Shown here in pieces: positions 6,724-64,000 of a stretch of DNA of 64,000 bases (the stretch's first letter is position 1; each line of letters opens with the position of its first letter). The translations under genes were made by a program, and so were the position numbers. Below the pieces are notes generated by a model, which was not told the origin of the DNA, did not search any database, and worked only from the letters and a program-made list of their open reading frames with translations. The DNA comes from Callorhinchus milii (lineage: Eukaryota), in NCBI RefSeq assembly GCF_018977255.1, contig NW_024704742.1, forward strand, positions 97,342,001-97,406,000. The letters run 5' to 3'.

Positions 6724-6768
6724 ATGCAGAGCTCAAGCGGTCCCCACATAAAGCAGAAAGATGGATGA
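6724..6768 (+). other. Out-of-frame upstream ORF ([14 protein letters not shown]) overlapping the PRUNE2 start codon
   Basis: ATG at 6724 in weak context (caaATGc); stop TGA at 6766-6768, downstream of the main ATG at 6761. Confidence 0.5.
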
Positions 6769-6796
6769 GTTCTTGCAGCGCACCAAGTCCATTCTG
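6761..6796 (+). CDS. PRUNE2: PRUNE2 coding exon 1 ([12 protein letters not shown])
   Basis: Strong Kozak context aagATGg; donor CTG|gtaaga at 6797; lies in the CpG-rich region. Confidence 0.9.
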
Positions 6797-35100: not shown

Positions 35101-38100
35101 CATGAAGGAGAAGTAAAGAGTGACATTTATGATCAGGAAAAGTGATGTGGATGATAAACTTGTTTAAACCAATTAAGCTATGTTTATTTTTAAAAATTAT
35201 GTGCATCAAAATTGCTTGCGTTTTTTAATCAAATTGATTGCTGCTCTTTTTGAGGGACATCTAAAAAGTTGGAAAGTAGACCCAGTACTAAATTTTCTCC
35301 AGCCTAAGCCCCCACTCAACCAACAATTTCTACCCCTCTCCACCACCTCCCCACTCAAATCATATGCAGAAATTGTTTCATATGAAATGATAGAATCATA
35401 GAATTGTACAGCACAGAAGGAAGCCATTCGGCCCATCGTGTCTGTGCCAGCTCTTTGAAAAGAGCATCCAAATCAATCCCACTTCCCCACTCTCTCCCCA
35501 TAACCCTGCAAACATGTCCTCCCCAAATAATTATCGACTTCTCTCTTAAAACCTGTTATCGAATCAGCTTCCAACACCCTTTCAGGCAATACATTCCAGA
35601 TTGGAACAACTCGCTGTGTGAAAAAATTTCTCTTCACCTCCCCTCTGTTACTTTTAACAATTATTTTAAATCAGTGTCCTCGGATTACCGATCCACCTGC
35701 CAGTGAAAATAATTTCTCCTTGTTCACCCTATTGTGGAGTCCTGTAGCTCAGTGGTTAGAGCACTCGCTTTGCAAGTGAGAGACCTGAGTTCAATCCCAG
35801 GCAGGGCGAAACCTTGGGCAAGTTTCCTTACTCCACACTCCTAATAATAATCCCTCCAAAAAACAAAAACAATAATTAAATTGGTGATTTTCAATCTACG
35901 ACTGTTTGTGGACATTGCTGTGCGCAATTGGCTGCCGCGTTCGCCCACAAATATACAGTCAATTCACTTTACAGTGTGTTCTGTGAAGCGCTTTGGGACG
36001 TCCTCCTGACGTGAAAAGCGCTATATCAAATGCAAGGATTATTATTAATATTATTATTATATTGAATCCCCTCACAATTTTGAAAACTTCTATTAAATCT
36101 CCTCTTAACCTTCTCTGCTCCAAGGAGAATAATCTTAGCTTCTCTAACCTCCCCTGATAACTGAAGTCCCTCATTCCTGGTACCATCCTGGTAAATCTCC
36201 TTTGCATCCTCCCCAATGCCTTGACATCCTTCCTAAAGTGTGGTGCCCAGAACTGAACACAGTCTCTAGCTGAGGCCTAACCAGTGTTTTATAAAGATTT
36301 ATCATAATTTCTTGATTTTTGTATTCTATGTCCCTATTTATAAAGCCTAGTATCCCGTAATCTTTTTTAACAGGTTTATCTACCTGTCCTGCCACCTTCA
36401 AAGATTTACTTATATGAACCTCAGGTCTCTCTGTTCCTTCACCCCTTTTAAGATTGAACCAAATAATCTGTATTTGCTTAAAAACTTGCATTTGAAATTG
36501 GGAATCTTTTAAATAATCAAATTGGTATTCTTCAGTTTATGTTTATACTGATTATACTGTTATACCGTATGAATAATCCAAAAAATGAGTATATGTTCTA
36601 ACTAGGTAAACAATAGTAGGAAAGTCCCTGGTTGGCATAATTTGTAAACTGAGTTTAGAAATAATTTGACTCTATGCTGTACATTTATTTATTTCAACGT
36701 TTGAAATTTTTTTTTTACCATGCAGGTTAGTTTAATTTAAAATCATCAGCCGTTCAACAGCCAACACAGGAAACAGCTAAATTGCTCAAGTAAAGCAAAG
36801 TGCATTGGCCTGTTTCCCAGGTCACTTGTGAAGCATTCAGCAGAATGATTGTTTTATGTTACTTGGCCATTACTGAGTGCAAAGCAAATGGGATCCTGGC
36901 AATACATAGTGCCAAAAGTACACCTTGTGAAGAATTGGTACAAAGTCACACCGGTCCCTTTGGAAGCTGTGTTGGGTCATGTAATATGCACTAATCTTGC
37001 TGAAAGGATATCAAGAATGTAGAGTTTAGTTTAGTCTGAAAATACACTTGTGGAAGCAAAAGGTGCAGTATTAGGCACTGATGAACAAGGGATAGTAGTG
37101 ATGGAGAAAACTGGTACAGAGCAAGTGCCCAGAACATCGAGCATCTCAATTAAGGAGAACCGATATGTAGACTTTAGGGATGCTTTGAGGTCAATAGTGT
37201 ATTTGGATTTTATCAAGCAGTTACATGTCACCAGCCACCATTCATTATAAGTGAGAAGGTGTATTGGCAGTTGGCACCTTTCTGATACATGGTGCTATCT
37301 TTCAAATGTGTGTCATATTTACCAACAGCATTTTGTAAGCGTAAACAGTACTCTACAACAACACCAACAACAATGATAATATGCATTTATATGGTGGCCT
37401 TCATTCAGGATAGAGTCTCAGAGTGCTTCAATCACTCTAGTCTTCTTTGCTAATAATACTACAGTCAATACCAATGTAGGATCTAGGGATAAACCATTGC
37501 AGATTGAACTGAACATAATGTCCAAATGACCATGAAGTGAGAGGATGCCCTTTTTATGTGTGGGAGTGTTTTGTAATGCACTTTGTCACCACAATCCTCA
37601 GTTTGACTACCCTTTATGTGGTTGGCTGGCCAAGAAAAAGATTTGCAAGTGAACATTGATCAATCCTGAAGTCTCAAACAGTGTGATGTGGTGATTCTAG
37701 GTCCAACTGAATGCTATGATACATAGCACAGATATTAGACTGCAAATTAGAGGGGTTTATTCAGATACTAAACTGTGCTCTGGTGTCTCCACATTAAGTA
37801 CTGTGTCCAGTTGCAGGTGTCATACCTGGGTAATGGAGGCATGGAAGAAAGTGCAGAGACATGCCACTAGATTCTAATTCTTCAACTCTCGGAATTCTCC
37901 AGAATGACTACACCCTCTCCCCCACCCTGTTTGGCTTTTTTTTTGGTTTTCATTGGGATTTTTTTGCCTTCTCTATTTGATGTACTGCCAGCTGATATTC
38001 AAAAGTATCAGTTCTGTGCCATCACATAACCCTTCAGGAGTGACTGGTTACTGAGCCCACAGTGCATGATCTGGACTCAGTCAGATCAGAGAGCTCTTGC

Positions 38101-41100
38101 AAAGGTGCAAGCCAGTAATCGGGAATAACAGATGCAAGTAGCTGGCCTTCTTTTGTATTGCCTGTAGTGCTATTGAACATCCACCAGTCCTTCTCCTTAA
38201 ACTAGATCACCTGCATAACCACCAGAAAAACTTCATGAGACATATCAACATCAACTACAACTTGCATTTATATTGTGGTAATGTCTCTGGACATTTAATA
38301 TCGAAGTGGATTACATAAAGGAGTATATAATTTTAACCACCTGTACTATTATTGGTACACAATTTAATAAAATGATTTTTATTAACAATATTGTTAATGA
38401 AGAGTCGAGTAAATAAAGCAATATATGCATATTGTATGGAATATGAAATTGAAAGTTCCAAGATTCCAAGGCTTATACACTATGTCTAAGTGAAAAGTGG
38501 CTGATTACATAGTTTAATGGAAATAGTGAGATCCTGGCACAGTGTCTCTGTGGCTAAATGCTGGTCTCCTCCTACTGGTAGCTGTTCATACTATTTTTCC
38601 CTTAATACAGATGCTCCTCAGCAATGTGGATGGATCTGGCCAGCGCTACATTATTTGAAATGCAGCAGAACGTGGTCACTATTTGATACCTAACTGGGGC
38701 ATGTTTTATGTTCTGAACATCTTGCACCCGAAATTTCCTATTTTTTCAAGCTTAAGATCATTGTCCTAAACTTTAAGACTGTCAGGAATTTTCAAAGATC
38801 ATTAAATTGTTCTAAATTATTTTTGAGTAGTAAGGAAAATTTGCTTCCAGTTTAGACTGCTTTCCAAAATTCCCTGTGGTCTTATTTTTAAAACAATGGC
38901 CTTAAGCCTAAGAACTTTGAGAAATTTGAGCTTATGAATCATTATTTAAGAACTTTGCAAGAAGTTTTCTATGATAATTTTGATTCACGTGGGCTAGTTT
39001 AGTTAGTTTTGTCCTTGGTTCAGTGTTTCTGTGGGTGTGTTATAAGCAATAATAGAGATCATATTCCCAAGTAGCCCGAAATGCTTTAGATTTGTAAAGC
39101 TGTGGTGGCCTCAGTATGAATGGTTTCTTCTTGGGTGCTGTGAATAAAGTGCCCCATTTTCTCTTCATGATTGCAGACCAATTGAAAGTTAATAATGGAT
39201 TGTAACTTTGTGGTTTGAGGTATGTCATTGATTTGTAACCTTATGCTTTGATGTTCGCCAGTAAATACATGTCTGTATTTGATAATTTCCTGCAGTTTTC
39301 GAGGGCCTGGTATTTGTTAATATCTGCTTTTGTCTCTGCTGCTGCTGCTAGTCACTGCCTATGTAGATGTAATGGTGTTCTTTTCAACCGAGACATGCAG
39401 ATGCTCCCCATTGGCAGTGGGGAAAGCCACATTGTTGGAGGTGCTGTGCTTTGAACGAGATGTTAAACCTATTGAGGTCCTAAACAATTGGTCATACACT
39501 TCATAGCTGTTTGATTGTTATTATGTGCAACTTATCTATCACAATTGCCTATGAATACACAGTTATTAGACTTTATGGAATCCTCCAGCAAAGCGGTTTG
39601 AGACATTTTGACATGAGAAGACGACATTAATTGCAAGGGTTTATTTATTATTGTTGGAATCAATTAAGGTTATGTTGCCATAATGCTTAATAATTGGTCT
39701 CTAAATGTAAGAATGCAAACACTGGACAAAGTGTCATCAGTTGACCTTGCAATCCTTCTTTCCTAGATGAGTGGAGATGATCTTCCCAGAGTTCATGCCA
39801 TACTTGGAAACAAAGTGTGTGGTCTGGACTCCACGGTTTCAGCCTTAGCCTATGCCTACTTCCTTTATAAGGTACTTCTATGCTACAAATCAAAAGAAAT
39901 GTAACATTGAAATGTAACATTGTATGCAGATTTTCCATGTTAAAAAGCTCTTATCAAAATTGTATGCATGCATAATAATGTGCTATTTTAACATACTACA
40001 AACAGATGCAAAGACTGTGTATTGAATGATGATGTGGTGCTAGATGAATATGCGTATTGCAGCTAAAGTATCAGATGTTGCTAGCTAGTGACAATCATCC
40101 ACTCCAATTTAGTCGTAGAGGTCATTCTATCATTGGGAGGGTTTCAAGTGGATGTTAACTGGGAGGGAAAAGCATCCTAGGTCATGCTTTTATCTTTGCT
40201 GGCCTCCATCTCAAGAACAGAATGGTTATTGAAGGGAAAAAACTAACTCTTAACACATGGGCACCTTTTGTACCTAATCTTTCCACATAAAGTTGTCTAC
40301 TGCAAAAATGGTACCATGCAAGGATTTAGCTAATATGCTGACCTTTCTAATCAATTGTTCTAAGATCAATTCTGTGTAGATCAATTCTACCTCAGACTGA
40401 CAGAGACGAAAGCTCTCTCTCTGCCACCCTTCCATATTTCCAGAGTATTTATCAATATCTGTTTTAAACATTTCAATTGATTCTGCTTTCTGTGACAATG
40501 CATCACATCACCTCTATGATCATGCAGTGTATATGCAGCTAAATTCAATTTTGGAAGTAAGTTTAAAATATGTTAATCTCTGTGATGCTTTGTTTTAATT
40601 TTATGTTTTGAAAAATACATTTAGAATTTCTAACCAAAAGAGCTACCATTTTAGCATTTAACTAGCAGTTGTAGTATCAGACTTTTAAATATTTATTTGC
40701 AACTAAAAGAAAATATTTTTGTTTTATAGACACATCCAAATAATGACCTGTATGTACCAGTTCTGAACATAGATCGATCAGAATTCCCTCTCCGGACTGA
40801 AGTTGTGTTTGTCATGCAGCAGCTGAATATCACAGACTCTTGTTTAATCTTCAGAGATGAAATAGATCTCCATCTGCTGAACAGGGAAGGGAGGCTGAGT
40901 GTTACACTGGTTGACCACAATATGCTGGCCAGGTATTTAGTTGCATATTTTAACTCCAAAGTACTGTAACGGGATATATCGTGGAATGAAGTTATGTATA
41001 CAGCAAAATTATAACCTGTGACATTCTGAAACTTCTTTTGAATCAAGTATATGTAACTGACCTACCGTTCCATGTGTTTTCATAGATTCTTGTTCACCAA

Positions 41101-44100
41101 ACAAAATTCTGCCCATAATCTTTCTTGGATCTTCTAATATTGACTAAAAATGAATGCTTCATATCTGTGTCTACAAGTGGAGTTACAAGTATTACAGGCA
41201 TTTACAGTCCAATGTTGAAGTACCCCATAATCTGTATTGTATGAATAATGGTTCTCTTTAATATTTAACTACTCTGCATTTTATGCCTTATGATACAGCT
41301 ATAAATCAGATCAACAAGAGTTAATTCTATGATTTGGGGAAATATAGATAATTGACCTGAACTGCAGACTTCTGAGGGATGTTATTTATTGTTGATTGAT
41401 TTATAACCATGATATTTAAATATTGCATTCGGAGACTACCTCTTATATTGAAACACTTTGAATAAGGTCCACTGTTTGGATTCATGCCTGCATTTTGGTT
41501 TCATAGGATCCACACTTTAAGGGTCACTGTTGATATCTGAATTCAACTGCAAACCTCTGCGTAAAAGATGACCTATTACTATTGGAACATTGGAATCTGT
41601 GGAACCCTGAATTCAATCTTGACCATCTCTCGATGATTTCTGTCAATCATTTGAGCTTTTTTCTGGCTCCCAACCAGGCTGTTGGTTACGTTAGTTTGGA
41701 GGAGAGATTTGATGTGTCACATGAATGTGGATAGAAAGAAAAACAAAGAAACTTGAGTTGGAACTAAATATTTAATGAACTTTACGTTTTGAAGTGTTTT
41801 TCTAGTGTGGTTGCTATTGGTATCCGCCCGATCACTGTTTGGAGGAAACATATTTGTTTTTGTCCTTGTTATCTTGGTTTATATTGTCTTCTCATCCAAA
41901 TTAACCTTAGTTGCAAATTAATTGGCTGAACTCATAGGACATTGCTGGTGCATTAGTTGTCATGTTTGCCTGTGTAACAACATTCACTTCTTTTCTAATC
42001 AATTTTATTTTGGTTCTGACGAAAGGTCATTGACCTGAAACTTTAACTCGCTTTCCTATTATTTAAAGTACTTAAGATGATAAAGTGATTTGATAGGGTA
42101 GATACAGAGAAGCTATTTCCTCTGGTGGGAGAATCTGAAACAAGGGGGCAGTTTTAAAATTGGAACCAGGCCATTTAAGAGTGAAATCAGGAATCATTTT
42201 TTCGCTCATAGGATGGTAGAAATCTTAATCACAAAAGGCTTTGGATGCTGGATCCAAGATTGATTTTTGGTTGATCAGGGTATTAAGGGATATGGGGAGA
42301 AAGTGGGAAATTGGAATTGAAGGGATTAGTTGAGGTACAGATCAGCCATGATCTAATTAAATGGCAGAACAGGCTCAAAGCGCTGAATGGCCTCTCCTGT
42401 TCCTATGTTCCTCTCTCCATAGATACAATGCAAAATTGTATTTGTATAGCACCTTTCACGTCGGTAGGACAACCCAAAGTGCTGGATAGTCAAGAATTTG
42501 GACCCGAGCTGGGGGTCGGGAATTGGGAAGGGAGGAAGGCAGGGAAGGTAGGAGGGTAGCTGAAGGCTCGGTCGAAGAGGAGGGTTTTGAGATGCATCTT
42601 GAAGGAAACAAGGGAGGGAGCGAGGCAAAGGGAATGTCGGATGGCGTTCCAAAGGTTGGGGGCAGAAAGGCTGAAAGCTCGACCATTGATGGTGGAGTGG
42701 GCCAGGCAGGGGATGTGGAGCAGTGGTCCTAGAGTTAAGGTTGGCGACAGAGAGGTATAGTTGGGTGTCACCTGCAATACATGTGGAAATTGACCCCATG
42801 TCTATGGATGATGTCACCAAGAAGGAGCATATAGATATTGAAGAGGATGGGACCAAGGACAGAGCCTTGAGGAACTTGTTCCAGAACCTTGGAAAGGAAA
42901 GGGAGGTTGGAAATAGGGCAGTAATTTGAGAGCAGGGAGGGATTTTTAAGGAGGGATTTTTAAGGGTAGGAGTGATGACTGCTGTTTTTAGAGGGGTGGG
43001 ATCTGTGCCAGTGGACAAATATACCACCTGACCTGCTGTGTGTTTTCAGCCACTTCTGTTTTTATTTGTAATTTTATTTTGGTTTTGCTCTTTGAGATCT
43101 TTTATTTTATATAAATGCAGGAACCTGTATTATCATCACTATTATTGTAAGAACAATGGATATGAAGTTGCAGTTATGCCTTCTGTTGTCTTTTAGTCCT
43201 GACAATGAACTTGAAACAGCCGTTATCAAAATAATTGACCACAATGAGCAAGATCGACTGCAATCTGTACATTGTGAAGTGGTCCAGGAGCCAGTAGGAT
43301 CATGTGTCACGCTGATAGTTTCAGAGATTCTTCAACATGCACCAGAGTTGCTTAACAAACAGCTTGCACATCTATTCAGAGGTAAGAGCTTTCATCTTGC
43401 ATTAAAGAATGGAATCAGAGACATTTTTTTTCCCACAGCAAGAGCTGTGAGAATGTCAAATGCACTGTTCCAGAACACCACAGATACAAAATTGATAACG
43501 ATGTTTTAAAGGGAGGGAGATAGATATTTGGCAAGGAAGGGTATTAAGGAATATGTGAAAAAGATGGAAAATGGGGTTAAAAGTTCAGCTATGATCTAAT
43601 AATACAGCACAATGAGTTTGACTGGCCGATCTGTATATTCCTGTTCCAATAGATTAAGGTTGTGCAGAAAGTTATCATTTATACTTCAGGCACATTTATT
43701 AGCCCTACAAAATCACAGAGTTCTCTCATACAGAGCACTGTCATGATATGATCCTAGAATCATAGTCTTACAGTGCAGAAACAGTCCATTCAGCCCATCA
43801 GGTTTTTTCCCCCATATGAACACCCACTCCCCTGTTTGCTCCCCACAACTTTTAATATTTCCCTTTTCACACACCATCTTTTTTTCTTGTCTTTTAAAAT
43901 AAGTTATGGACCCTGATTTAGCAATGGTTTGTATTCAAATCAACTTGGATGCAAGGATGCAGGGCAGCATTGGAATAAACAGATAATTCATCTTATAACA
44001 CATTAATTTGATCAAGCGTTGAGATAGTCTCATAGTCTAGCAGAAAACAATCAGATGATGTTTAGCTGTTATCTGTACAACATACGTTCCTCCCTTTCCT

Positions 44101-47100
44101 GTAAAATTCTCCCAAGTATCAGTTTATTTTTTAAAATAATGTTTTTATTCGGTTTGGAACGCATTGTTATGCTGACAGTAGATGTCATTGGGATTACAAC
44201 TGTCACAATGCTTCCTTCAGTTGATGTGCATTTGATAAGCGGCAATCCTAGCATTGAAAAATGTAATGATTGTCATGTCATTCTGTCACATTTCATCAAG
44301 AAACAATTCATAGTTGATGGCTCAAAAATTTAAGGACCTATATTTCTTGTTCACAAAGAGTTCATCAAAATACATTTTTGAAAAAAACCTTCCTTAAATT
44401 AGCTTAAAAACATTATGACATGTATTTTGTTAGGAACAATACTCCTAGATAGTGTGAATATGACTCCGGAAACTGGAAAAGTGACTTCAAAAGATGAAGA
44501 AATTGTAGCTGCTCTGGAAGAGAGATTTCCTGATCTCCCGCCACAGAAAGAGGTTTTTGATGCTCTGCAACAAGCAAAATTTGATGTCACTGGTACTTAA
44601 TTTACTCTTATTTTTGTGCGTGAGAGCTGATTACATAAATAGTAGAATGCTGATTAACTGGGCACTGAATTGTCTCTATCTGCATCAAAATTGGATGCAG
44701 AAGTGAAGTAGGGCTGTGATGTTTTAGAACTTAGAAGATAAGAGCATAAGAATTAGGAGCAGGAGTAGGTCATTCAGCCCCTCGAGCCTGCCCCGCCATT
44801 CAATAAGATCATGGCTGATCTATTCTAACTCCACCTACCCACCTTATCCCCATATCCCTTAATCCCTTTATCCACAAGAAATCTATCAATCTCAGTCTTG
44901 AATATGTTCAAGGACTGAGCATCTACAGCCCTTTGGGGTAGAGAATTCCATAAATTCACTATCCTCTGAGTGAAGATGTTTTTTCTCAACTCAGTGTGAA
45001 AGGGCTTACCCCTAATTTTAAGACTGTGAACCCTGGTTATAGTTTCTCCAACCAGGGGAAAACGTCTCCCACTATCTATTCTGTCATGCCCCTTAATAAT
45101 CTTATAGGTTTCTATTCTAAATTCTAGAGAATATAGGCCTAAATTGCTCAACCTATCCTCATAACTCATCCGCCTCATCCCAGGTACAACCTAGTGAATC
45201 TACGTTGTACCCCCTCCAAGGCGAGTACATCCTTTCTTAAATAAGGAGACCAAAACTGCACACAATACTCTAGGTGCTGTCTCACCAGGGCCCTACACAG
45301 TTGCAGCAAGACTTACCTACTCTTATATTCTAACCCTTTTGTAACAAATGCCAACATACCATTAGCCTTCCTAATTGCTTGCTGTACCTGCAAACTAGCT
45401 TTTTGTGACTAGTGTACAAGGATACCCAAGTCCCTCTGAACGCTAACACTATCTAGTCTCTCCCCTTCTAAAAAATAATCTGCTCTACTGTACTGAATCC
45501 TAGGTGGATGACTTCACATTTCTCTACATTATACTTCATCTTTCACCTATTTGCCCACTCACCTAGCCTATCCATATCCTATTGCATTTTTTTAATGTCA
45601 TCCTCGGTGTTTACTCTCCCTCCTAGTTTAGTGTCATCCGCGAATTTGGATATATTAAGTTCGATGTCCTCATCTAGATCGTTGATGTAGATTGTGAATA
45701 GTTGAGGCCCAAGGACTGATCCTTGTGGCACTCCACTAGTCACATCCCGCAAATCTGAGAAGGACCCGTTTATCGCTACTCTTTGTTTTCTTCCTGTTAG
45801 CCATTCTTCAATCCATGCTAATATATTCTCCTTAATTCCATGGCCCCTAATCTTGTGGATTAACCTTTTATGTAGCACCTTATCGAATGCCTTTTGGAAA
45901 TCTGAATACACTACATCCACTGATGCCCAGCTATCTAATCTACTTGATATGTCCTCAAAAAAATCTAAAAGATTTGTTAAGCATGACGTCACACCACTGT
46001 AGCTCAGCGGTTAGAGCACTCGCTTTGCAAGTGAGAGACCTGAGTTCAATTCCAGGCAGGGCGAAACCTTGGGCAAGTTTCCTTACTCCACACGCCTAAT
46101 AATAATCCCTCCAAAACCAAACAATAATAAATTGGTCATTTTCAATCTACGACTGTTTGTGGGACATTGCTGTGCGCAATTGGCTGCCGCGTTCGCCCAC
46201 AAATATACAGTCAATTCACTTTACAGTATGTTCTGTGAAGCGCTTTGGGATGTCCTCCTGACATGAAAAGCGCTATATCAAATGCAAGGATTATTATTAT
46301 TATTATGACTTCCCTTTTGTAAAGCCATGTTGACTCTGTCTAATCATATTGTGATCCTCTAAGTATCCCACTACGACATCCTTAATCAAGGCTTCTAGAA
46401 TTTTCCCTACCACCGATGTCAGACTAACTGGTCTATAGTTCCCCATCTTTTCTCTCCCACCCTTCTGAAACAGTGGAGTGACGTTTGCGAACTTCCAATC
46501 AGTGGGAACCGTTCCAGAATCCAAAGAATTTTGGAAGATTAGACACAAGGCCTCCACTATCTCATGAGCTACCTCTTTTAAAACCCTAGGATGCAAACTG
46601 TCAGGTCCAGGGAATTTGTCACTTTTTAATGCCAACAATTTCCCTAGCACCAATTCTTTGCTAATGTAAATTTCCCTAAGTTGCTCCCTATCTTGGCTTA
46701 TCTCTATCTTGGCTTATCCCCTTGGCTTATCTCTATTTCTGGTAAACTTCTTGTGTCTTCTAACGTGAAGACAGAAGCAAAGTATTTATTTAGGGACTCT
46801 GCCATATCTTTATCCCTCATTATAATTCCTCCTGTCTCTGCCTGTAATGGACCCACATTTACTTTTGCTCGCCTATTTCTCTTAATGTATTTATAAAAAC
46901 TCTTACAATCTGTCTTAATGTTCCTGGCTAGTTTGCCCTCATAATCCATTTTCTCACTCTTAATGAGCTTTTTGGTTTTCCTTTATTGGTCCCTAAAACA
47001 CTCCCAGTCCTCAGGTTTGCTACTTTTTTTGGCAGTTTTATAGGCCTTTTTTTTAGTTTTATACTTTCTCTAACTGCTCTAGTTAGCCACAGATGAACTG

Positions 47101-47831
47101 CTTTCCCTGTGGTACTCTTATTCCTCAAGGGACTATGTGACCGCTGAGAATTATGCACTACATCTTTAAACGTTTGCCATTGTTGGTCTATTGTCATATC
47201 CATTAATCTAATTCCCCAGTCTATTTTAGCTAATTCTTCCCTCATACCCACAAAGTTAGCTTTATTTAAATTTAAGACTTTGGGGTTTGGGGGAAAAATA
47301 GTTGCATTCATGCACATACGGATAATTATTTTCAAGCATACTTAAAGAGAGACAGATACAATAACAGAGATGGTGAGGGGTCAAAAGTACACTTTTCATA
47401 CTCACATTGGGGTTATTCACAATCAGTACTAGCTATCTGGCTGGGTACATTGTATTCCTGTAATTTACATTGCTTTCTGCATCCAAAGAGACTTTGCTTA
47501 CTGAAGCTCAATGGCCTGTGTGTTTTCACGGTGTAGTAGATTGCTAAGTAACCAATAGTTTCAGTAATCTGGATAAAGAATTTTGTACAGATTGGTTTGT
47601 GTGATTGTGCATGTTTTAATAACATTAAAACTATTTAATAACTTTTTAATAACATTGAAATACTATCCAAGTCAGAAAGAAACAATCACCCCTACATATT
47701 TTGGGGGAAATATTAAAAGTTTTGTTTCTATTGTAGGTTTAAGTACTGAACAGATTTTGCTGAAGGATTTTAAAGAGCTGTCAGAAGGAGAAACAAAGCT
47801 CGCAATTAGCACTGTATACACGACCCTGGAG
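6761..47831 (+). CDS. PRUNE2: PRUNE2 ortholog, 5' part: join(6761..6796,39767..39871,40730..40932,43197..43381,44434..44592,47737..47831); 261 aa, 3'-incomplete
   Basis: Six GT-AG bounded exons (36,105,203,185,159,95 nt; intron phases 0,0,2,1,1,0) splice into one open frame: [66 protein letters not shown]...[29 protein letters not shown]...GSCVTL...[13 protein letters not shown]...[38 protein letters not shown]. The N-terminus and exon 6 resemble PRUNE2 (recalled human MEEFLQRAKSKL; LKDLKELSDGEIKVAISTV) more than PRUNE1. An in-frame TAA at 6749-6751 lies just upstream of the ATG. Confidence 0.9.
7840..9020 (+). mobile_element. Two head-to-tail degraded L2 3' fragments (~7840-8550 and ~8553-9020)
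   Basis: [22 protein letters not shown] motif; each fragment ends in an L2-type tail (tgaaatgcact.. / tgaaaggagct..ttgttatt). Confidence 0.8.
9285..9470 (-). mobile_element. Old tRNA-type SINE fragment (family unassigned); related pieces at ~15770-15910, ~30320-30420, ~34450-34520, ~50660-50740
   Basis: Shared ctgatttt..cctc..ctgaggccaattg / gatcagctaactc..accgg motifs; ggttcaaacc B-box-like motif. Confidence 0.45.
12885..13030 (-). mobile_element. L2 3' tail fragment
   Basis: Reverse complement of the L2 tail (gcgcccttcatgtcagaaagatgtcccaagg...ggacccgagctg). Confidence 0.7.
13560..14350 (-). mobile_element. 3' fragment of a non-CR1/L2 non-LTR retrotransposon (clade unassigned)
   Basis: Minus-strand remnant HLLLKLR...[21 protein letters not shown] (degenerate CCHC knuckle, ~13948-14010); its terminal motif catggtaat..ggtttcc.catgtgtc.gacacctggctgac recurs at ~2509-2550 and ~33728-33765. 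Confidence 0.6.
15956..16205 (+). mobile_element. tRNA-derived Deu/L2-tailed SINE, 5'-truncated
   Basis: Matches the body and tail of the copies at 20311, 35737 and 45997. Confidence 0.88.
17520..17625. repeat. Imperfect (GT)n microsatellite
   Basis: tgtgtgtg runs interspersed with gggtgagt. Confidence 0.85.
17640..18085 (+). mobile_element. Degraded L2 3' fragment
   Basis: ctccgctggctccc..gatcgatttt; ccttcaagtcccaccttaaaacctacctcttc; tail ..tgaaggccactatataaatgcaagttg. Confidence 0.65.
19034..19508 (+). mobile_element. Long-form tRNA SINE carrying an internal ~130-bp insertion
   Basis: Head gagtcctgtagcg...; extra ctgtttacctagcaataagtaagatcctgg segment; insertion 19192-19325; Deu/L2 tail with (att)n. 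Confidence 0.85.
20311..20620 (+). mobile_element. Full-length short-form tRNA(Ala-like) SINE
   Basis: A box tagctcagtgat, B box ggttcaattcc; flanking aaacatt repeat (20299-20305 / 20621-20627) as likely TSD. Confidence 0.92.
21848..22318 (+). mobile_element. Old DeuSINE (SacSINE1/AmnSINE1-like); related copies ~32940-33225(+), ~39410-39650(+), ~55790-55960(-), ~62005-62390(-), ~18540-18720(+)
   Basis: ctcgcctc..gagtc.gaaggttgt..ttcaagtcccac head; caggt..atgta.a..aagat; cctggccaaca; Deu domain and L2-like tail. Family named from recall. Confidence 0.65.
22078..22151. mobile_element. 74-bp hAT-type non-autonomous element nested in the old SINE
   Basis: TIRs cagggatggccaac / gttagccaaccccg (11/14 match); perfect 8-bp TSD ATTTACTT at 22070-22077 and 22152-22159. 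Confidence 0.8.
24969..26496 (-). mobile_element. CR1 LINE 3' fragment (RT C-terminal half) interrupted by a SINE
   Basis: [35 protein letters not shown]...[15 protein letters not shown]1 3' UTR at 24969-25100. Confidence 0.93.
25784..26119 (-). mobile_element. Long-form tRNA SINE (5'-truncated) nested in CR1
   Basis: Reverse complement of the SINE tail and body, including the acagctaggtaaacagagg segment. Confidence 0.88.
26545..26680 (-). mobile_element. CR1 (HER1/HE1-type) 3' end fragment
   Basis: cagaaacatagatacaggagtagg..cagcccctcgagcctg..aagatcatggctgatc, same end as 44724-44860. Confidence 0.8.
27985..28455 (+). mobile_element. L2 3' fragment
   Basis: [26 protein letters not shown]; tail ending (ttg)n. 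Confidence 0.85.
31528..31609. repeat. Near-perfect ~80-nt hairpin
   Basis: tttatccaacagatccatctctaaccct / agggttagaggtggatctgttagataaa (one G-U, one mismatch) plus inner ccaaa/tttgg. Confidence 0.9.
32022..32790. mobile_element. Two ~200-230 bp fold-back (palindromic) MITE-like elements (32022-32232; 32562-32790); relatives ~10990-11155, ~34570-34880, ~38726-38932
   Basis: Ends (g)cc(t/c)gaaattt ... aaattt/gtttcgg; shared core gaaa(a)ttctta(a)a(t)tcggtcttaatt / aataagact.aatt.aagaat. Confidence 0.65.
35389..36460 (-). mobile_element. CR1 LINE 3' fragment interrupted by a SINE
   Basis: [74 protein letters not shown]; tail atagaatcatagaattgtacagcacagaagg. Confidence 0.92.
35737..36060 (+). 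mobile_element. Full-length short-form tRNA(Ala-like) SINE nested in CR1
   Basis: gagtcctgtagctcagtggttagagcactcgctttgcaagtgagagacctgagttcaatccc; TSD TATTG at 35730-35734 / 36060-36064. Confidence 0.93.
39767..39871 (+). CDS. PRUNE2: PRUNE2 exon 2 (DHH motif I region, GNKVCGLDS)
   Basis: Acceptor ccttctttcctag|ATG; donor AAG|gtactt; 105 nt; [35 protein letters not shown]. Confidence 0.92.
40730..40932 (+). CDS. PRUNE2: PRUNE2 exon 3 (contains DHN at the DHH signature)
   Basis: Acceptor ttttgttttatag|ACA; donor AG|gtattt; 203 nt; ...[16 protein letters not shown]...[28 protein letters not shown]. Confidence 0.93.
42065..42412 (+). mobile_element. CR1 3' end fragment in intron 3
   Basis: tttgatagggtagatacagagaagctatttcctctggtgggagaatc...cagccatgatctaatt..ctcctgttcctatgttcc. 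Confidence 0.8.
42428..43010 (-). mobile_element. L2 fragment with internal deletions, tail-to-tail with the CR1
   Basis: Minus-strand [34 protein letters not shown]2 tail reverse complement at 42428-42520. Confidence 0.82.
43197..43381 (+). CDS. PRUNE2: PRUNE2 exon 4
   Basis: Acceptor ttgtcttttag|T; donor G|gtaaga; 185 nt; [18 protein letters not shown]...[31 protein letters not shown]. Confidence 0.93.
43435..43900. mobile_element. Two short degraded CR1 3' ends (+ ~43435-43630; - ~43750-43900) in intron 4
   Basis: Similar to the CR1 3' UTRs at 42300-42410 and 35389-35500. Confidence 0.55.
44434..44592 (+). CDS. PRUNE2: PRUNE2 exon 5
   Basis: Acceptor tattttgttag|GA; donor G|gtactt; 159 nt; [53 protein letters not shown]. 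Confidence 0.93.
44724..47281 (-). mobile_element. CR1 (HER1-like) LINE, ~2.2 kb of ORF2 plus 3' UTR, frameshifted, occupying most of intron 5
   Basis: RT motifs [74 protein letters not shown]. Confidence 0.95.
45997..46304 (+). mobile_element. Short-form tRNA SINE nested in the CR1 RT region
   Basis: Near-identical to the 35737 copy; TSD ATGAC at 45983-45987 / 46305-46309, with 9 extra 5' bases (gtcacacca). Confidence 0.93.
47737..47831 (+). CDS. PRUNE2: PRUNE2 exon 6 (start of DHHA2 domain)
   Basis: Acceptor tttctattgtag|GT; donor GAG|gtaagt; 95 nt; [32 protein letters not shown]. Confidence 0.92.
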
Positions 47832-48447
47832 GTAAGTGAATCACTGGCAAAACTTAACTGCAATTCAACAATAGCAAAGCATAGGGTGGCCTATTCCATC
47901 ACGTCAATATTTACTTTGAATATTGCTTGCAACACTCACAGCACTGTTTGAGTGATGTTACCACCACTTTACAGACATAAATCTATAATTGTAGGCTGAT
48001 TTGCATAATACATATTAATAACTTCTTTTAATGAACAGTGATTTATCATAATGTTTTAGAACATCAGAAATGAAATATTACATCCTTCATTGCGAGATGT
48101 GGTGTCACCCTGAGATGGCTCAGTAGGGATTCCTCAGTGTGGAATCTGAGCAGGATGCCTTTCATTTCTATGGATGTGTTAACTGCCTACCTGTCAGAAA
48201 CCAATGGCAAGTACAAAAATGGATATCATCTGTACGAGAAACAACTATGAATGCTTGCGTGTTTTCCTTTTGCTGATTTTCAAGGTGAGTATCTCAGGAA
48301 GTCATGCTACAGACTAAAGATGTAGCGTACCTATCCTATAGCAGTTTTCCCTGGGAATCACAGCTCTCAAGTAACTCCTATGATGGTTTGGCACTGTCCG
48401 CTGCTGTGTCCTGTAGATTCACTCCCTATTAACTGGGATACCCCACT

Positions 48448-48560
48448 TTTTGCCCACAAATATACAGTCAATTCACTTTACAGTATATTTTGTGAAGCGC
48501 TTTGAGACGTCTAGAAGACATGAAAAGCGCTATATCAAATTCCAGGGTTATTCATTATTA
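48448..48560 (+). mobile_element. ~110-bp SINE 3' fragment; similar fragments at 24131-24246(+), 29125-29265(-), 33775-33910(-), 34621-34732(-), 50278-50377(+), 56333-56445(+)
   Basis: tttgcccacaaatatacagtcaattcactttacagtat..gtgaagcgctttgagacgtc...gcgctatatcaaat. Confidence 0.85.
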
Positions 48561-51500
48561 TATATTAGTGAATAAGAGTGGGGCAGTCTCACAGAGAAAT
48601 CTGACTTGAAAGGCCTTGGGCTAATAATACTAAATTTTATGTATTTACTGAAACCTTTAAAACAAGTTCTGTACAGACTTACTGTATTTTCTTCTAAAAA
48701 AAGACGAGAGTATTTTGTATAAATCAACAACCTCGACTTTGTGTTTTACTTTTCATTGAATATCAGTTGATTGTGAATATGCCAAGGTGAATGATTTACT
48801 TTGATTATAATGGAGAATTCTGGATTGATTTTGACTCTGATAATACGGTTCACTTTTTGTATCTGACGTGTTTGTCCAAGTGAAATGGTTCAGATTGAAT
48901 ATTTTCGCGCATTTTAAATTCTGTTCAGCACTTTTCCTGAAATATTTTTTAAACCAAATGCTAGGTCATTAAATGATTTGTTTAAATTTCATTTATGTGT
49001 CAGTTTATAAACCGAGCAGCTGGAATAAAATATATAATTACCTTAAAACAAAGTAGTTCAATAATTCCTCTTAACTACAATAAAGCCATCTAATCTTTTA
49101 TCCTGTCGATAATGTGCAAGGCTCTTATCTAACACTTTACTGCACTCAATATCAATCACTAGGGAAAAATTATCCTGTAATGTTTAATCTGTGTTTTGCC
49201 ATTGATTCAACACAAAATTTACACATAATCATTACCAAAAGAAAGTATAAATCAGGTTAGCATTGTGGTAATTCATACTGGAATCTTGGTTGCTGAGACT
49301 GAGTTGTAAGTAAAGGTATTTTGATTGGATTCAGCCTTCAATCAAAAATGGTTCTCTAAAAGATCTTGCACAGTCCAAGAAACTTTTAGGGAAGCTATTT
49401 AATGTTATTTAAGGTCCGTTGAATTCAATACCAATTAGCAAGAACTCTGTGAATGGACTTAGTTGCTTATGTTCAGTGCTTTACTCAGCTTGCGCGATTA
49501 AGTTTTGAATCATAAAGTAAAAATGAGGCATCCTGCTCCTAATTGCTTCCAGCAGTATAAATTGGTATGTGGCTCATAAGGATAATCTACCATCTCTTGA
49601 TTATTTTTCTTCATGTACTTAATGGCAAAACAAGTCGGACAGACTGAAGGCCTACTCCAGTTTCTATCTTCTTATACGGGCCTCTTGCCCTCTTAATACT
49701 CATCATGAAATAACATTTTCTATCTTATTCCTGTACAAATATTAATTTTCCAAGTCATCTAGTTATATTTGTTTTGTGTTCTTTTCCCATTAAACATCAC
49801 TGTCATAATTATTACTGCTGTGCTTATGTACTTGAAGATGCATTCTCGAGAGGCTTATGTGACGTGAAGTAAGTGCTGAAAAGCCATTTAATACGAGTGC
49901 CGTCTGCTCTGAAGCTCCCACTGCTGGACAGTTTGTGAAATGCTTGCTTTCCTGTCAGACATATCAGCTGCCCACTGGCTTTTGGTGGACTCTCAATGTA
50001 TTCAATTAATGCAATATGGATAGAGTTTTAATGGTTACTTCATTATCCCAGTATTTATTATAAAGAGTGACCTGATGTTGAAAATGCTCATTAACTTTAT
50101 AATTCTTTGCTTTACTAATAAGGATTAATATTCAAAACTGGAATCCCAAACTTGAAGACTCAGATGAAAATCTGAATGTTGGCTCCTTCTCCACCCCTCT
50201 CCCTCCCCCCCACACATTTGTTTTCATCAGATTCTCATTTCCTTTCTTCAGGTACTTGACGAGTTTTTCCTACTACATTTCGCCCGCAAAATATACAGTG
50301 AATTCACTTTACAGTATATTCTGTGAAGTGCTTTGAGACGGCTCGAAGATGTGATGATGCAAGAATTATTATTATTACATTTCCATGACTAAGACACTGG
50401 TCACGTTCAAATTCAAATGGTCATTGTTTGTGTGTAAACCGTGTCAGGCTATTGTCCATGGGGGTGAGGAGTATCAGAACTGAGCCCATTTGCTATCCTC
50501 ACCATTCTAATAAGATTACTGTCACTCTAAATGAGCAAAACATGGAATATTTGCCAGTAATTGCAGTTCATAGACCTGAAGGGTCAAAATGAGAATGCCA
50601 AATGTAAAAAAAAAAACCTGAAAAAATAGAAACGTCACAATTTCTGAATGTAAAAGCACAAAGGGGGTACTTCCTAACCATCAGGAGAGGGGGCCCTGAT
50701 TTCCCCTCTTCTGCCTAACTCAAGATGCTGAGGCTAATTGTTATAATTCTTCATATCAAAATAGCACTAATTTTTTATAAAAGGATTTAAAGTTACAGAT
50801 GTATGGTGTGGAAGAGGGAGAGAGAGAGAGAGGAATAAATGAATCCATTTTAACTTTTGAAGAAGTTTGAAGAGAAACTGTCTTAATTAAGGAGCTTTTG
50901 GCAGCTTTTTTTTGCTTTTTTTTGCTTAGAAATGGAAAAAGGGAGCACAAATGCTGTACATCTTGCACAAATAATGTGATGGCATGTTTCAACGTGATTT
51001 AACCAGTGTAATATGTAGTGGTAAATTTACAGTATACAATATATGATTTTTCTTTCCTTTAAAGGAGCTTGAAATTAATTTGCAATAATTCATCTTGTTT
51101 CTGTTCATTATGTTTACAGTGAACTATCTGATAGAACTCAGTCCAAAACTGGTATCTGAATTTGAGGTTGGAAAAGTCAATGTGCAATGTGATCCTTAGC
51201 TTTGTAGTTTTTACTGGAACTAAAACTTCAAATTTCACAAATATAGTATACCTTCTTTCCTGTTTTCAGTGATATATTCTGCATGACTTTTTGTCAAAAC
51301 AATAAATTAATAAATTATCTGCTAAAAATTCCAGTTTAGCCTGATATATAAAAATCAGGAATTTCTTGTCTTTTCCCTTTTCCCTTACCCCTTCCATACA
51401 CAGTTATATTTTACAGTCCTATTAAACCCTATGTTGTAAAACATAAATTCAGCAATATACAGTAAAACTCACATAAATCATCTCTTTATAAATCGTATAA

Positions 51501-54500
51501 GTCTCATTCAGTTTCCTACAAAAAATGCTTAGATTTATTTGCATTAGTCGTATTTTATACATTAGAGAAATGGCTAAATCGTAACAGTTTATTGGTCTCA
51601 AATGCATCATAAATCCTTTGCAAATCAACTCATAATATCGTAAAGGTGTTACCATACTTTAGCGGCTGAATTGAAATGCGGCAATGCCCAGTGTTCCACT
51701 TGAAACAAGCATGGGAAACAAAGTGTTGACCCATCGCCGCATGCACACTTACCAGCTGCAGTGATGAAGTACCATGCAGTGCAGTACAGTGCTGTGTCTT
51801 CTATAAAAACAAACGTGGAAAATGAGGTACTTGTTTACTGTATTTGTTATGTATTAGTTGTATAAAATCCACATAAATCCACAATTTGCATAAGCTGTAC
51901 ACACAAGTTTGCCTGTAACTCATAATTTGGCAAATCATATTAAATGATACAACTTATTTGGTTTTACTGTAATTATCAAACAGTACTATGTACCTAGATT
52001 GAAATTACCTACACATTATTATTTACTGGATGTTAAAATTACAGCTAGGCAGAATATCACCCCCGGTTTAGTTTTCTTAATCATTTGAGACTAAAATTAA
52101 ATCTTTTTAATAAATTACTATAATTCTTGATGAGCAAAACATGGAATTTTTGCTGGTTTTTGCTGTTTATAGGTTTCGGAGGCTCAAAATGAAAGTGCCA
52201 AATGTAAAAAAAGAAGAAATAGAAATGCCATGTTTTCTGAATGTAAAAGCACTGGCAACCTCCAGAACAAGTCTCAGGGGTCAGCATTTCTTTGCTCCTT
52301 CAGAACCATAACACAAAAGCAAACCAAATCCAAAGTAAAACCTACTCTGCCCGGATATTGTCTTTATCTCCAATCTCAGAAGAGCGCCCTCTAGTGCACA
52401 ATTGTGACATTTCCATGTCCCACATCACCCAGAGATTTACATAATTTCTGTGATAGGGTGACTGGTTGGTTCATAAGAGTGTGGAAAGCATGGAATGAGA
52501 AAATAAAACATTTAGTTCACAAAACCCATTCCCATTGTTCAGGATTTAAATTTGGGGAGGGGAGTGGTGGCTATAATGGAATTCTCTGTATCGGGGCCTC
52601 TTGACTGAACCTTCAATTTGAATTCCCTTCTCAAAAGTCAAGTTTTCCTACTTTAAGACCTCCAAAGCTACAATATTGCTTAACGGTGTTTGGGCGTTGG
52701 TGTTGGGTTCAGCATATAGAGACTTTACAATGTCATCTGAAGTTCTGCTCATTCATACCAACACCTTTCCTACAGGGAGAATATTTCAAAGAGCTTTTCA
52801 AAGTCAGTGGGAGTAGGAGCTGGTTAGGAGACTGAGGTAAGGGAAAATGGCTGAAGGTGCAATTAAAGCAATCAGTCTATCAACTTGAAGTAGCTGAAAG
52901 TTTTCCTATCAAATTGCGTGTAGCTTTTTTTAAAATAACTATTAGAAAACAAACTAGAAACCTGAAATTTGTGTCACCATTATCTTGGTGACTCTGGCGA
53001 TGAGAGATTATAATGTAGAAATCCAGTCAGATATTAAGAATAGGTACATTGCTTCACTTGCAGCAGTATAAATAGAGTATCAAAGGATTTTAGCGTGTGA
53101 GTCACATTCATATTAATTCATATTTTATACTCCTCGGATTGTTTCACGTTATTTTCAGCTATGGAATTATTTAGAATGGGAGGTCTATACAGTGTGATCT
53201 GAATCCTTTTTTCTGCAAATGTAACATTTGTCAATTTAATAAGATTGCAAAGTGCCAAACATGCCACCAAATTAGCCTTGTATTGCCCTGAACCAGAATG
53301 CTAACCAGAATATCAATAACTAGTTTACATTTGCTATTAAATATGTTGAGGTGTCCATTGGGTAAATTAGGTTTCACAAGCCAAAAAATGGTTGCTGCCG
53401 TGGGGCTTTATTGTGAGCTTTTTTGTACTGTTAAAAACTAATGATTGTATAATACAGAATTTAGTGTTAATAAGTGACCGATGTTTACTAATTCATTTTG
53501 CATTTAACTAAATAATGATATGCCATAATTGGTTCATTTCCTTTTACAAAGCTAATGCCGCAACTATTTGAATATTGTTTGACTGTTATAAAATGAGGTT
53601 ACATTGAAATTGCATTTTTTTAAATGACATTTTTGATTGTCTGAAATTTAAACAACGGAGTTTATATTGATCTAGTGTGTTTTCAATTGTCACATCTGAG
53701 GATAAAATATCATTGCTGTATCTGTCTCAGTTAAAGATTACAATGTGCAGAGAGATGGACAAGGAGATTAGATATGATTTGAAAGTAATAAAATCAGGTT
53801 AATATTAGACATGTAAATACACCTTATATTAATATAAGGTATTTCTATCCCCATCATACACTTGCTTAGAGTACCTGTGAGATCTGAGGGAGAATGTAAC
53901 ATATGGCTTTGCGATAGAGAAAAACCTAGCCACTCATTTTATACACTGGACTTTTGGTGATGTGCTGCATAGCCAAGGGGAGGCCATTAGAGATTAATAT
54001 TAAATAAATCACCAAGGGGTCCTCTCAGAACACAAGTCTTAAAGCCACATAGTGTGCTACTAATGTGCATAAATGGGTTGAAATGAATTTGTTTCATGGA
54101 TGTCATTTACATTATGTATATATTTATTTATGATTTTTTAATTGTGGCTGGAAATAAATGTTAGCAGATACAGTGTTCTCCTTTTCTAAGTGCATATTGA
54201 ATGTGAATCAATCAGTTCCAATTAATCTTGACTTTACCGTGGCAGTGTGAGACTAATTCTGTCAGTATTTGATATCTTAAAAGAAGGATTGCTTTTGTGA
54301 CAAAAGAAGAATTGTTTAACTCAATCGAGGCTTCGGAGGAAAAAGCTCTGTGTATTTATATAAATGGTATTAACATAGCTGAACTTTTGTAATAAATTAA
54401 TGTTATTTTGATATAAAGTATTGTGACATTTACAATATTTTAATAGTGTTTACTTTCATGTGCACTTTTCTTTTTAACATGTTCACACAAGATTTTGATT

Positions 54501-57189
54501 AAGAATTGAGAATCTATGTACATCATTCGTGCAGCTAAGTATTCAGTAATGCTTAACCCTTGCTAAAAAATTACAGTTGAAGGAAAAGGTGTTCAGCATC
54601 TTTTCCCTATGGATTTTATCGGAAGCAAAGGATGTACATGGCTATCATTCTACGTGGTAGCTGTTCTCTTATTGCAGTGTATCCTATCGAAAAGCAAAAA
54701 TAGTACAAAAGGACTATCTAATTATACTTTTAATGGTGAAGATTTTGCAAATCAGTCAGATTTAATTCAAATTTAAAAAACAAACAGCCATTTTCACTTA
54801 TCTTTCAAGTAATTAATAAGATTTCCACCATATGGAGGTCCCAGCATCATACTCTCTGCATGCTTAATTTGCCACAGACGCATCTTCAACCAAATCATAT
54901 GTAAAATATCCCAAAGGGCTATATAATTTTAAGGTGAAAATTTCCAACAGTTTCTGATTTGAGCTTTTTTTATAATATAAAGTTTAGTGGCTGTGCCATT
55001 GTCTGAGACATGAAAATGATAGTTCTGTTCTGTCTTATCTGTGTTTTGGAATGCCATTATTGCCAGTAGGTTATTTGTTTCCTCTGAATTGAACATCATC
55101 AGACAGCTAAATGACATGACATTAGTTCATAAGCTGCTGTGGGCGTTCCATTGACTGTGAGACTAATGCGTTTATCTATCTGAAAGTTATGGAAGTTTTA
55201 TTTATCTCGCATACTGCCTTAATATTTCACTGGTATGTAGTGATTTTTTTGTGGTAATTTATTTCAAGCCTGGTGTTGTACAGATGTTGTATCAGCAGGA
55301 TTTTATTTCTTTACATTTTATGGGCCCTCATTAACCCTTAAAATGCTAATCACCACATCCCCAATTGTTCAATAGTGCTTCTTGTTGAATAGTTTTCAAC
55401 CACATGAGATAACTTTTAATTTTTCATGCAGATTTGATATTGATGGATACAAAGAGGTTTGTATTGTTCAATAGTGTCTGTCAGGAGTAAACTGAGACAG
55501 TCAGAACTTGAACAAGCTATTTACATGACGTTGCTTGAGGTGTTTGCAGTTATAAAGTTAATAAGATTAAAGAGCATGGGATTTTTGGCTGCAACATTTG
55601 CCTTTTACCCCTGTCTACAAAATGATTAGGATATTTATAATTTGGGGTAATGCAGTAATTGGGCTTCTTTATGTACTTGCTATCTTGTAAATGGCAATTT
55701 GCATCTGCCAGACCCGGCAAACTGTCGTAAAGTGAATTAACAAAAAATCTATAGGATTGCTGACCAGGGCACTAAGAGAATCTTTTCAATTATTGTCACT
55801 GACTCTTTAACATCCACCTGAAGAACAAGAAAGATGGGACATCTCAGCTGAATGATAGAACCTCCAACAATGCAGTAATACCCATTATTCCACTGGAATC
55901 TCAGTCAAGACTATGAGCTCAAGATCCTGTTGATGGGATTGATCCCTCAACCGAGTACTCCATCACACAGTAGATGGTAGAAATTATTTTTATAAGGCTT
56001 CACAGGTACTGTAACAATCATAATAAGGTCAGATGCATTGATGGCTGGTGATGAAGTTTACCTTCAGTGATTGTTACTTGGTTTGTTGTTTTCCATGCCA
56101 CAGAAAAGTTATTTGATTGCTGGGTTAGCAATTTCAACTCTTTTAAGGTCTTGCAATTGTAGAGGTGACTTCTTCATTGTTGTTCAATACTATTGAGTTT
56201 GCACTCTGAAAAACAAGCTTGGATGTCAAATCCCACTCAGGCCTGCCTCAATTTGAGCAGCTTGAGTCAGCCTCAGAACCTCAGCAGTAAAGCTGCCAGT
56301 TGATCCCAGTTTCTGGCTTTAATATTCCTATGTTTTGCCCACAAAATATACAGTCAATATGCTTCACAATATATTCTGTGAAGTACGTTGAGATGTCTCG
56401 AAGATGTGATAAGGCGCTATACAAAATGCAAGGATTATTATTATTGGTACATATCCTTCCCAGCAGCAGTCTTTGTTGCCTTCAGTTATTTCATGACATT
56501 TTTATGTTTGAAACAACTCAGCAAACAATGGACACTGTGATTGACTTTCAATTATTGGAAAGAAAATTGTGTGCATAAGAATATCCAAGCTTCATCTGCC
56601 AGATAGAGATTTTTTTAAAAATGAGCAAGGTTAGGCCTGCTCACCCCCATTAGCCAAATTAGACCAAATGCGTTCCACTAAGGGAACAAGGTTTGTCCCC
56701 ACACACAGGCCCTAATCCCCTCCAAACTCTTCTAGACCCCAAATTATCAAAGGATAGTGCAGGCTTGAACCATGTCTTCACGACCACCCGAGCAAGTCAG
56801 ATGACTGGATCGCCCCTCCGGCCTGAGCCTAGTGACCAATAACTTAAGTGCGCTCGGTGTTCCAATATCTCTGCTTCCTCTTAATGAGATTTGAGAGGGT
56901 TAATTTAGCATGAGCTGTGAGGTGCAGCCAGAATATGTTAGGAAAACCTGTTTTGGAGAATTGCATCATGTTCAGCATTTATTATTTCTCACAAGGTCCA
57001 AAGAGACCCTGCTTATGAAACTACCCACTGACTCATTTTTCAGATATAAATGCAATACAGTATGAAGTTTCTTGGAAAACTTTTTTTAGTTCTTGCGAAG
57101 CAGTGATTCTAGAAAAGAAGTAGAACTGCACGACTGCCTTGAAAAGCATCAGTTTGTATAATTTTGTACAAATCTTTTAAAACAATACA

Positions 57190-57615
57190 ATGCATTTATG
57201 AATTTACATTTATATAGTATCTTTCACATTGAAAGGACGTCCCAAGGCACTGACTGGAAAGTTGCCCTTGCACCCAAGCTGGTGAAGAAGGAAGGATTAA
57301 TGAATGTGGGGTGCAGAGGAAGGCTTTGATCAGACCTTGAAGGAGGCAGGGGAAAGGGCAAGTTGAAAGGAGTCCGAGATGGAGTTCCAGAGAGTGGGGC
57401 AGATACACTGTAAACTCGATCACCGATGGTGGGGTGAGTGGGACAGGGGACGTGAAGCAGACTGGTCCCCACTTAGCAGAGGGGGTGGCTGGGTTGGTAG
57501 GGTTTGAGGAGAATGCAGAGGTAGGGTGGAACAAGACCATGGAAGGATTTAATTCTTAGGATGAGGATCGATCTGCTGGGGGTTGAGGAGCCAGTGAAGT
57601 TGGATAAGGTTTGGA
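57190..57615 (-). mobile_element. Degraded L2 3' fragment
   Basis: Minus-strand SLLHVPCPTHPTIG, ILRIKSFHGLVPPYL; tail reverse complement ctttcacattgaaaggacgtcccaagg. Confidence 0.75.
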
Positions 57616-63797: not shown

Positions 63798-64000
63798 GTA
63801 CTGTGTGGGTTTGCTTTATCCCAATGAGCATTTTAATACACCTATCCATAATAACTCCTTTGAGGAGTCTCTTCAACACAGAAGAGCCCCAATTTATCTA
63901 ATCATTTCTCATAGCTCAAGATCATCCTTCAAATACTTGAGATTGGGCTCATTGTTTACATCTGTATTGCCCCGAGACCAGGACAGCAGCATAATTCAAA

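Follow-up and report, generated by a model that had tools for sequence, protein, structure and literature searches.

Among the closest described relatives of the protein discussed here are PRUNE1, a short-chain exopolyphosphatase of DHH subfamily 2, yeast PPX1 and the family II pyrophosphatases (PPases). In PRUNE1 and PPX1, two metals activate water, and basic residues of motif III and of the C-terminal SRK motif grip polyphosphate. For the T. commune PPase, passages of the literature name H10, D14 and D84 as ligands of metal site M1 (bioRxiv 10.1101/2025.02.25.640086; PMC7062746) and D16, D84, H106 and D158 as those of site M2 (bioRxiv 10.1101/2025.02.25.640086). PRUNE2 (also called BMCC1 or BNIPXL), of which there are orthologues in all jawed vertebrates sampled, carries a related module, and the human PRUNE2 DHH domain is still described with phosphodiesterase activity in a passage of a 2025 case series (PMC12663043). 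Here, we analyse PRUNE2 of the chimaera Callorhinchus milii, the first six coding exons of which lie in a window of 64,000 nucleotides (contig NW_024704742.1, positions 97,342,001 to 97,406,000). With a probability of roughly 70%, an estimate that includes the history proposed below, its DHH/DHHA2 module is a predicted pseudoenzyme midway in decay, in which the M2 ligands are kept but the M1 aspartate and both basic residues for the substrate are lost.

The identity of the gene is not in doubt. The 261 residues encoded in the window are 100% identical to the start of RefSeq model P0009 (XP_042189607.1, protein prune homolog 2, Callorhinchus milii); this is chimaera PRUNE2, already known and annotated. 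P0009 comprises 2997 residues and combines the N-terminal prune module (Pfam DHHA2 at 220-360, E 2e-17) with a C-terminal BCH region (BNIP2 at 2699-2823, CRAL_TRIO_2 at 2826-2962), the PRUNE2 architecture. Pfam DHH itself has no match in P0009 at E 0.001 and is matched in the shark protein P0008. Both the BCH region and residue Q351, discussed below, lie outside the window and are known from P0009. Phylogenies were built with FastTree (66 rows) and with IQ-TREE (25 rows, 13 catalytic columns dropped). In both, the chimaera protein is the sister lineage of the PRUNE2 proteins of sharks and rays (IQ-TREE, 100/99), within a PRUNE2 clade that includes the bony vertebrates (IQ-TREE, 100/100; FastTree, 1.0). 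A grouping with PRUNE1 was rejected by the approximately unbiased (AU) test (p=0.00036), and a distinct PRUNE1 (P0362), 48% identical to the chimaera PRUNE2 domain and complete in its active site, exists in C. milii. The possibility of a PRUNE1 copy or pseudogene was therefore discarded, the more so as the 2997-residue model has an open frame with BCH at its end. On this point the initial annotation, made from the window's letters, was right, as it was for every residue and coordinate that it named in motifs I to IV (Table 1).

The two-domain DHH + DHHA2 fold of subfamily 2 is present. Residues 1-368 were modelled with AlphaFold at a predicted local distance difference test (pLDDT) score of 95.2, and the best structural match of the model is yeast PPX1 (2qb7; E 4e-26, template modelling (TM) score 0.80), followed by family II pyrophosphatases. 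Human residue numbers were mapped through the papers, turtle PRUNE1 and PPX1. Equivalents of N24, D30, D106, H107, D126, H127, D179 and K349 are shared with PRUNE1, as are motifs I to IV in outline. However, motif I (G-N-x-x-x-D-x-D) has lost the first of its two aspartates to G31 (D28 in human PRUNE1), motif III (D-H-H/R) reads D129-H130-N131 with Asn in place of R128 or His, and the C-terminal SRK motif reads SQK in P0009 and in 14/14 C. milii models, Q351 taking the place of R348 and aligning opposite R381 of PPX1. Motif II (D-H-N/H) is intact as D109-H110-N111, and so is the motif IV aspartate, D182, the equivalent of D179. A further difference from PRUNE1 lies in the ~2600 extra residues that end in BCH.

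Alignment with the bacterial enzyme, made with the shark protein P0001, which has the same residue numbering as the chimaera protein, maps M1 to N27, G31 and D109, and M2 to D33, D109, H130 and D182. By this mapping, the M2 set is complete and M1 is broken: the motif II Asp, the motif III Asp-His and the M2 ligands are shared with PPX1 and the family II pyrophosphatases, whereas the equivalents of the M1 Asp, H149 and R381 are missing. According to passages of a review, human N24H, D28A, D179A and R348A lose activity, D106A, H107N and H108N retain reduced activity and R128H has a raised kcat (PMC8569853). Elsewhere, D106N and R128Q are stated to be inactive, R128 to correspond to the phosphate-binding H149 of PPX1 (PMC7788287) and the SRK motif to bind substrate (PMC11210485). 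Since G31, N131 and Q351 occupy positions of such dead human mutants (D28, R128, R348), the chimaera protein is predicted not to hydrolyse tripolyphosphate.

The initial annotation had described a near-intact site degraded differently from that of mammals. The residues bear this out, yet the essential substrate-binding Arg348, outside the window, had been overlooked, and one supposed lesion is none. Among 116 vertebrate PRUNE1 proteins, motif II reads DHN in 98 and DHH in 15 (3 unscored), and DHN is given as canonical for PPX/PPases (PMC3022644), so the change termed H108N is not decay. The R128 position is His in 61 and Arg in 47 of the same proteins (8 unscored).

To place these changes among vertebrates, nine core positions were compared in a single PRUNE2 from each of 15 cartilaginous fishes and 16 bony vertebrates (sturgeon, gar, tarpon, lungfish, amphibians, reptiles, a bird, mammals and one further record). 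A second Amblyraja isoform, the partial Scyliorhinus P0002, three alternative C. milii models, and the teleost PRUNE1-like duplicates P0020 and P0347 were dropped before counting; P0001 is without the SRK region. All 15 cartilaginous fishes keep 5-7 of the 9 core residues; all 16 bony vertebrates keep 1-3. The motif II Asp-His, the motif III Asp-His and the D179 equivalent, all retained in the chimaera, are gone in 16/16 bony-vertebrate PRUNE2, so that their loss, ascribed to mammals by the initial annotation, is real but much wider. The initial annotation had named a pattern general among non-mammalian PRUNE2 as a refutation of its reading; the near-intact site is indeed general among cartilaginous fishes, and is not seen in bony non-mammals. 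In a larger set of 53 bony-vertebrate PRUNE2 proteins, several of them partial models, DH[HNR] strings occur in four, all outside the motifs.

Within the cartilaginous fishes, the site varies piecemeal. Position 31 is Gly in the chimaera and in 5/5 rays and Asp in 9/9 sharks; thus, the D28G change listed by the initial annotation is not confined to the chimaera. Rays are sister to sharks, and Asp31 would have been lost twice, in chimaeras and rays, or regained in sharks, two changes either way. Position 27 is Asp instead of Asn in 14/14 elasmobranchs, the chimaera keeping the ancestral N27, and Asn131 was found in the chimaera alone; G31, N131 and N27 together set it apart from most sharks. 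Scattered changes comprise D109N in Carcharodon and Chiloscyllium, H130Y in Mobula, D33E in Heterodontus and G149R in Scyliorhinus, none of which is carried by the PRUNE1 proteins sampled. Carpet sharks (P0233, P0234, P0008) have a three-residue insertion in motif III, e.g. DHHDHHE or DHHDYHE. The Arg348 equivalent (position 351) is absent from 14/14 chondrichthyan PRUNE2 (11 Cys, 2 Ser, 1 Gln; one short isoform unscored) and from 16/16 bony-vertebrate PRUNE2 (9 Cys), and present in 25/25 PRUNE1 and 8/8 invertebrate proteins.

Constraint on the catalytic positions was assessed as the minimum number of changes needed at 11 catalytic columns, on trees from which those columns had been left out. 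Chondrichthyan PRUNE2 shows 11 changes (tree length 1.07) and bony PRUNE2 shows 44 (4.80), with 0 in the 25 PRUNE1 proteins, both chondrichthyan (2.73) and bony (4.50); given the tree lengths, the probability that all 11 would fall on PRUNE2 is ~9e-7. In chondrichthyan PRUNE2, catalytic columns average 1.00 changes, background columns 0.95 and 72 other PRUNE1-invariant columns 0.57 (catalytic vs PRUNE1-invariant: Mann-Whitney p=0.03, Fisher p=0.07). Domain identity between the chimaera and three elasmobranchs is 74-78% for PRUNE2 versus 60-62% for PRUNE1. A fold that stays conserved while its catalytic positions relax is what a pseudoenzyme usually shows. Retention of 7 of the 9 sites is compatible with slow average drift (p=0.12). 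By comparison, the probability that the short stem of the bony vertebrates would lose a given set of five sites at the average rate is ~4e-4, with the sites picked after the fact; this improbability suggests a distinct remodelling on the bony-vertebrate stem.

A likely starting point for this history is found in invertebrates. Prune-BCH fusions in Branchiostoma, Saccoglossus, echinoderms and molluscs have the same DHH-DHHA2...BNIP2(-CRAL_TRIO) order as PRUNE2, branch outside the PRUNE1/PRUNE2 pair and, unlike chimaera PRUNE2, have a complete active site including ASRK (8/8). Long fusions with a complete site are P0285, P0031, P0027, P0289, P0290, P0049 and P0092 (amphioxus, acorn worm, echinoderm, mollusc), to which Pfam searches and precomputed domain assignments give BNIP2 or BNIP2 + CRAL_TRIO_2. 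This suggests that the PRUNE2 architecture is ancestral and PRUNE1 a shortened form. From an intact fusion gene as in these animals, duplication would have left PRUNE1 with the enzyme, its BCH part lost, and PRUNE2 with the BCH scaffold; the intact invertebrate fusions make this division likely. Human PRUNE1 and BNIPL, which we take to be adjacent genes, would fit such a split. PRUNE2 would then have lost Arg348 first, ahead of the divergence of sharks and bony fishes; the M2 ligands would have disappeared on the stem shared by all bony vertebrates, and the slowly evolving cartilaginous fishes would have kept M2 and eroded M1 and the substrate positions piecemeal. The chimaera domain would still fold and may bind one metal, but catalysis is likely dead, the domain probably being retained as a folded binding or scaffold module.

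Several points weigh against this account. The sequence of losses is read from present-day proteins, with PRUNE2 sampled in jawed vertebrates, and Cys351 could have arisen by parallel change in both lineages. Results from human mutants are carried over to a protein of ~50% identity, and the M1/M2 assignment derives from bacterial PPases. D28 is retained by most sharks, with His where R128 would be, and R128H is the substitution reported to raise kcat. When the columns are divided after the fact, on small counts, the six D/H columns around M2 show a mean of 0.67 changes against 0.57 for the core, and the equivalents of N24, D28, R128 and R348 a mean of 2.0; no chondrichthyan scored departs from H110, D129, D182 or K352. 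The M2 side may thus still be held by selection, which also fits a retained function. Finally, the PRUNE1-like Sphaeramia duplicate P0020, left out of the counts, has changes at N24 and in the SRKK lysines (including K349), possibly a second, independent decay.

Some of these points feed an alternative that we consider unlikely, namely that cartilaginous-fish PRUNE2 retains an altered function, either sensing phosphate or nucleotides through one metal or acting as a retuned phosphoesterase/hydrolase, coupled to the Rho-regulating BCH domain, with elasmobranch Asp27 replacing the M1 ligand lost in rays. The near-core conservation of the M2 side, the fixation of Asp27 in elasmobranchs and the high identity of the domain all agree with it, as does the recovery of human PRUNE2 among GTP/8-oxo-GTP-binding proteins (PMC3765211, in a passage citing Iwama 2011). 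That binding, however, occurs in a protein without the residues in question. Moreover, sharks and rays carry D109N, H130Y, D33E and G149R, none tolerated by PRUNE1, the chimaera combines N27 with G31 and so lacks the proposed compensation, and the average rate by itself would account for the sites kept. If true, an M2-based sensor or retuned hydrolase would be the final remnant of an ancestral enzyme-scaffold fusion of animals, divided by vertebrates into PRUNE1 and PRUNE2.

Decidedly improbable, in our view, is a fully working PRUNE2 polyphosphatase in the jawed-vertebrate ancestor that died independently in each lineage, close to what the initial annotation had proposed in calling that ancestor still largely catalytic. 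Part of the argument holds: all metal ligands are common to sharks, PRUNE1 and invertebrates and, as the initial annotation reasoned from ligands that are lost in mammals and kept here, must still have been present when bony and cartilaginous fishes split, after which the two lineages lost different ones. But Arg348 is missing from all 30 PRUNE2 proteins scored, with Cys dominant in both lineages, which indicates a single shared early loss; R348A is the mutant reported inactive, and further derived states are found in both lineages (238 L in 15/15 cartilaginous fishes and 15/16 bony vertebrates; 28 K/R; 126 K; 349 V). PRUNE2 activity was therefore likely crippled before sharks and bony fishes diverged, and inactivation is unlikely to have been fully independent. 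An assembly error at Gly31 is hardly credible, and so is a PRUNE1 copy or pseudogene: although some shark orthologues bear the database label 'PRUNE1-like' (P0001), GGT recurs in several sequencing runs, Gly31 in every clustered C. milii isoform and in rays, and the AU test and the open, BCH-ended model identify the gene.

For Gly31, exons 2-5 are joined at GT..AG with 0 differing letters by one spliced contig each in X5 and X6, two runs from two studies that were guessed to be RNA. The DNA run X2 spans 39600-41994 with no difference at the Gly31 codon among the differences listed; its study may include the source of the assembly, and the independent support is that of the two presumed RNA studies. 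In related organism B (X12), among the differences listed, 39769 and 39813 differ and the codon does not, and 11/11 clustered C. milii isoforms carry the residue. With the spliced contigs and the DNA run in agreement, Gly31 is a genuine residue, and the assembly error raised as a possibility by the initial annotation did not materialize.

Under the favoured reading of a pseudoenzyme midway in decay, living species would form a graded series, from the intact fusion (amphioxus) through an Arg-less protein with an intact metal site (sharks) and M1-less forms (rays, chimaera) to the stripped domain of bony vertebrates, which would make the birth of a pseudoenzyme directly testable and place the human PRUNE2 DHH domain at the dead end. 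The fusions also suggest a physical link, in invertebrates, between the hydrolysis of polyphosphate and signalling through BCH. Full-text literature searching, the coverage of which excluded most subscription journals, found no paper on PRUNE2 active-site evolution or this residue pattern; DHH domains on some BCH proteins are mentioned in passages of one article that do not discuss activity (PMC3313917). The novelty is comparative, as the gene itself is annotated and any alignment would reveal the pattern. Duplicate pairs in which one copy decays are common, the pattern is less surprising than the initial annotation held, and interest will be confined to those who study polyphosphate, pseudoenzymes or BCH proteins. 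Two Joint Genome Institute (JGI) proteins, P0239 and P0011, combine BCH with two or three DHH/DHHA2 units in tandem, and P0011 has calponin-homology domains as well; the fusion may predate, or extend beyond, the animals sampled.

Table 1. Coding features of C. milii PRUNE2 in the window (positions count from its first letter)
Feature	Position	Strand	Content
Coding exon 1	6761-6796	+	ATG start, residues 1-12; N-terminus agrees with P0009
Exon 2	39767-39871	+	Residues 13-47; motif I with N27, G31, D33; spliced contigs X5, X6
Gly31 codon GGT	39821-39823	+	Replaces M1 metal-ligand Asp (human PRUNE1 D28); ligand via 9m0m alignment and passages of bioRxiv 10.1101/2025.02.25.640086
Exon 3	40730-40932	+	Motif II D109-H110-N111 at 40913-40921
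Exon 4	43197-43381	+	Motif III D129-H130-N131 at 43237-43245; GSCVT at 43297
Exon 5	44434-44592	+	Motif IV D182 at 44448-44450
Exon 6	47737-47831	+	DHHA2 start; intron 6 extends beyond window end

The six exons have GT donors and, in exons 2-6, AG acceptors, and form a single open frame. Intron 1 measures 33 kb (6797-39766) and intron 6 more than 16 kb (47832-64000 in the window). By tblastn, exon 7 and the BCH exons have no match inside the window, which encodes nothing past residue 261; a candidate exon 7 at 48060-48284 was rejected for stop codons and want of a tblastn match. The Heptranchias protein P0001, despite its label, is a short PRUNE2 model that ends right after exon 6 and resembles the six-exon human isoform BMCC1-2 (PMC2655648), and the lungfish model (P0032) is likewise short. 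Human intron 6 harbours PCA3, reported for mammals only (PMC2655648).

The introns also contain repeats. Three tRNA-Ala(TGC)-like elements (20312-20383, 35738-35809, 45993-46064) are likely the heads of tRNA-derived short interspersed nuclear elements. Open reading frames on the minus strand of intron 5 (44700-47270) encode reverse-transcriptase fragments, presumably of a type resembling long interspersed nuclear elements, and intron 3 holds a very high-copy repeat cluster, as judged by depth, at 41994-43190.

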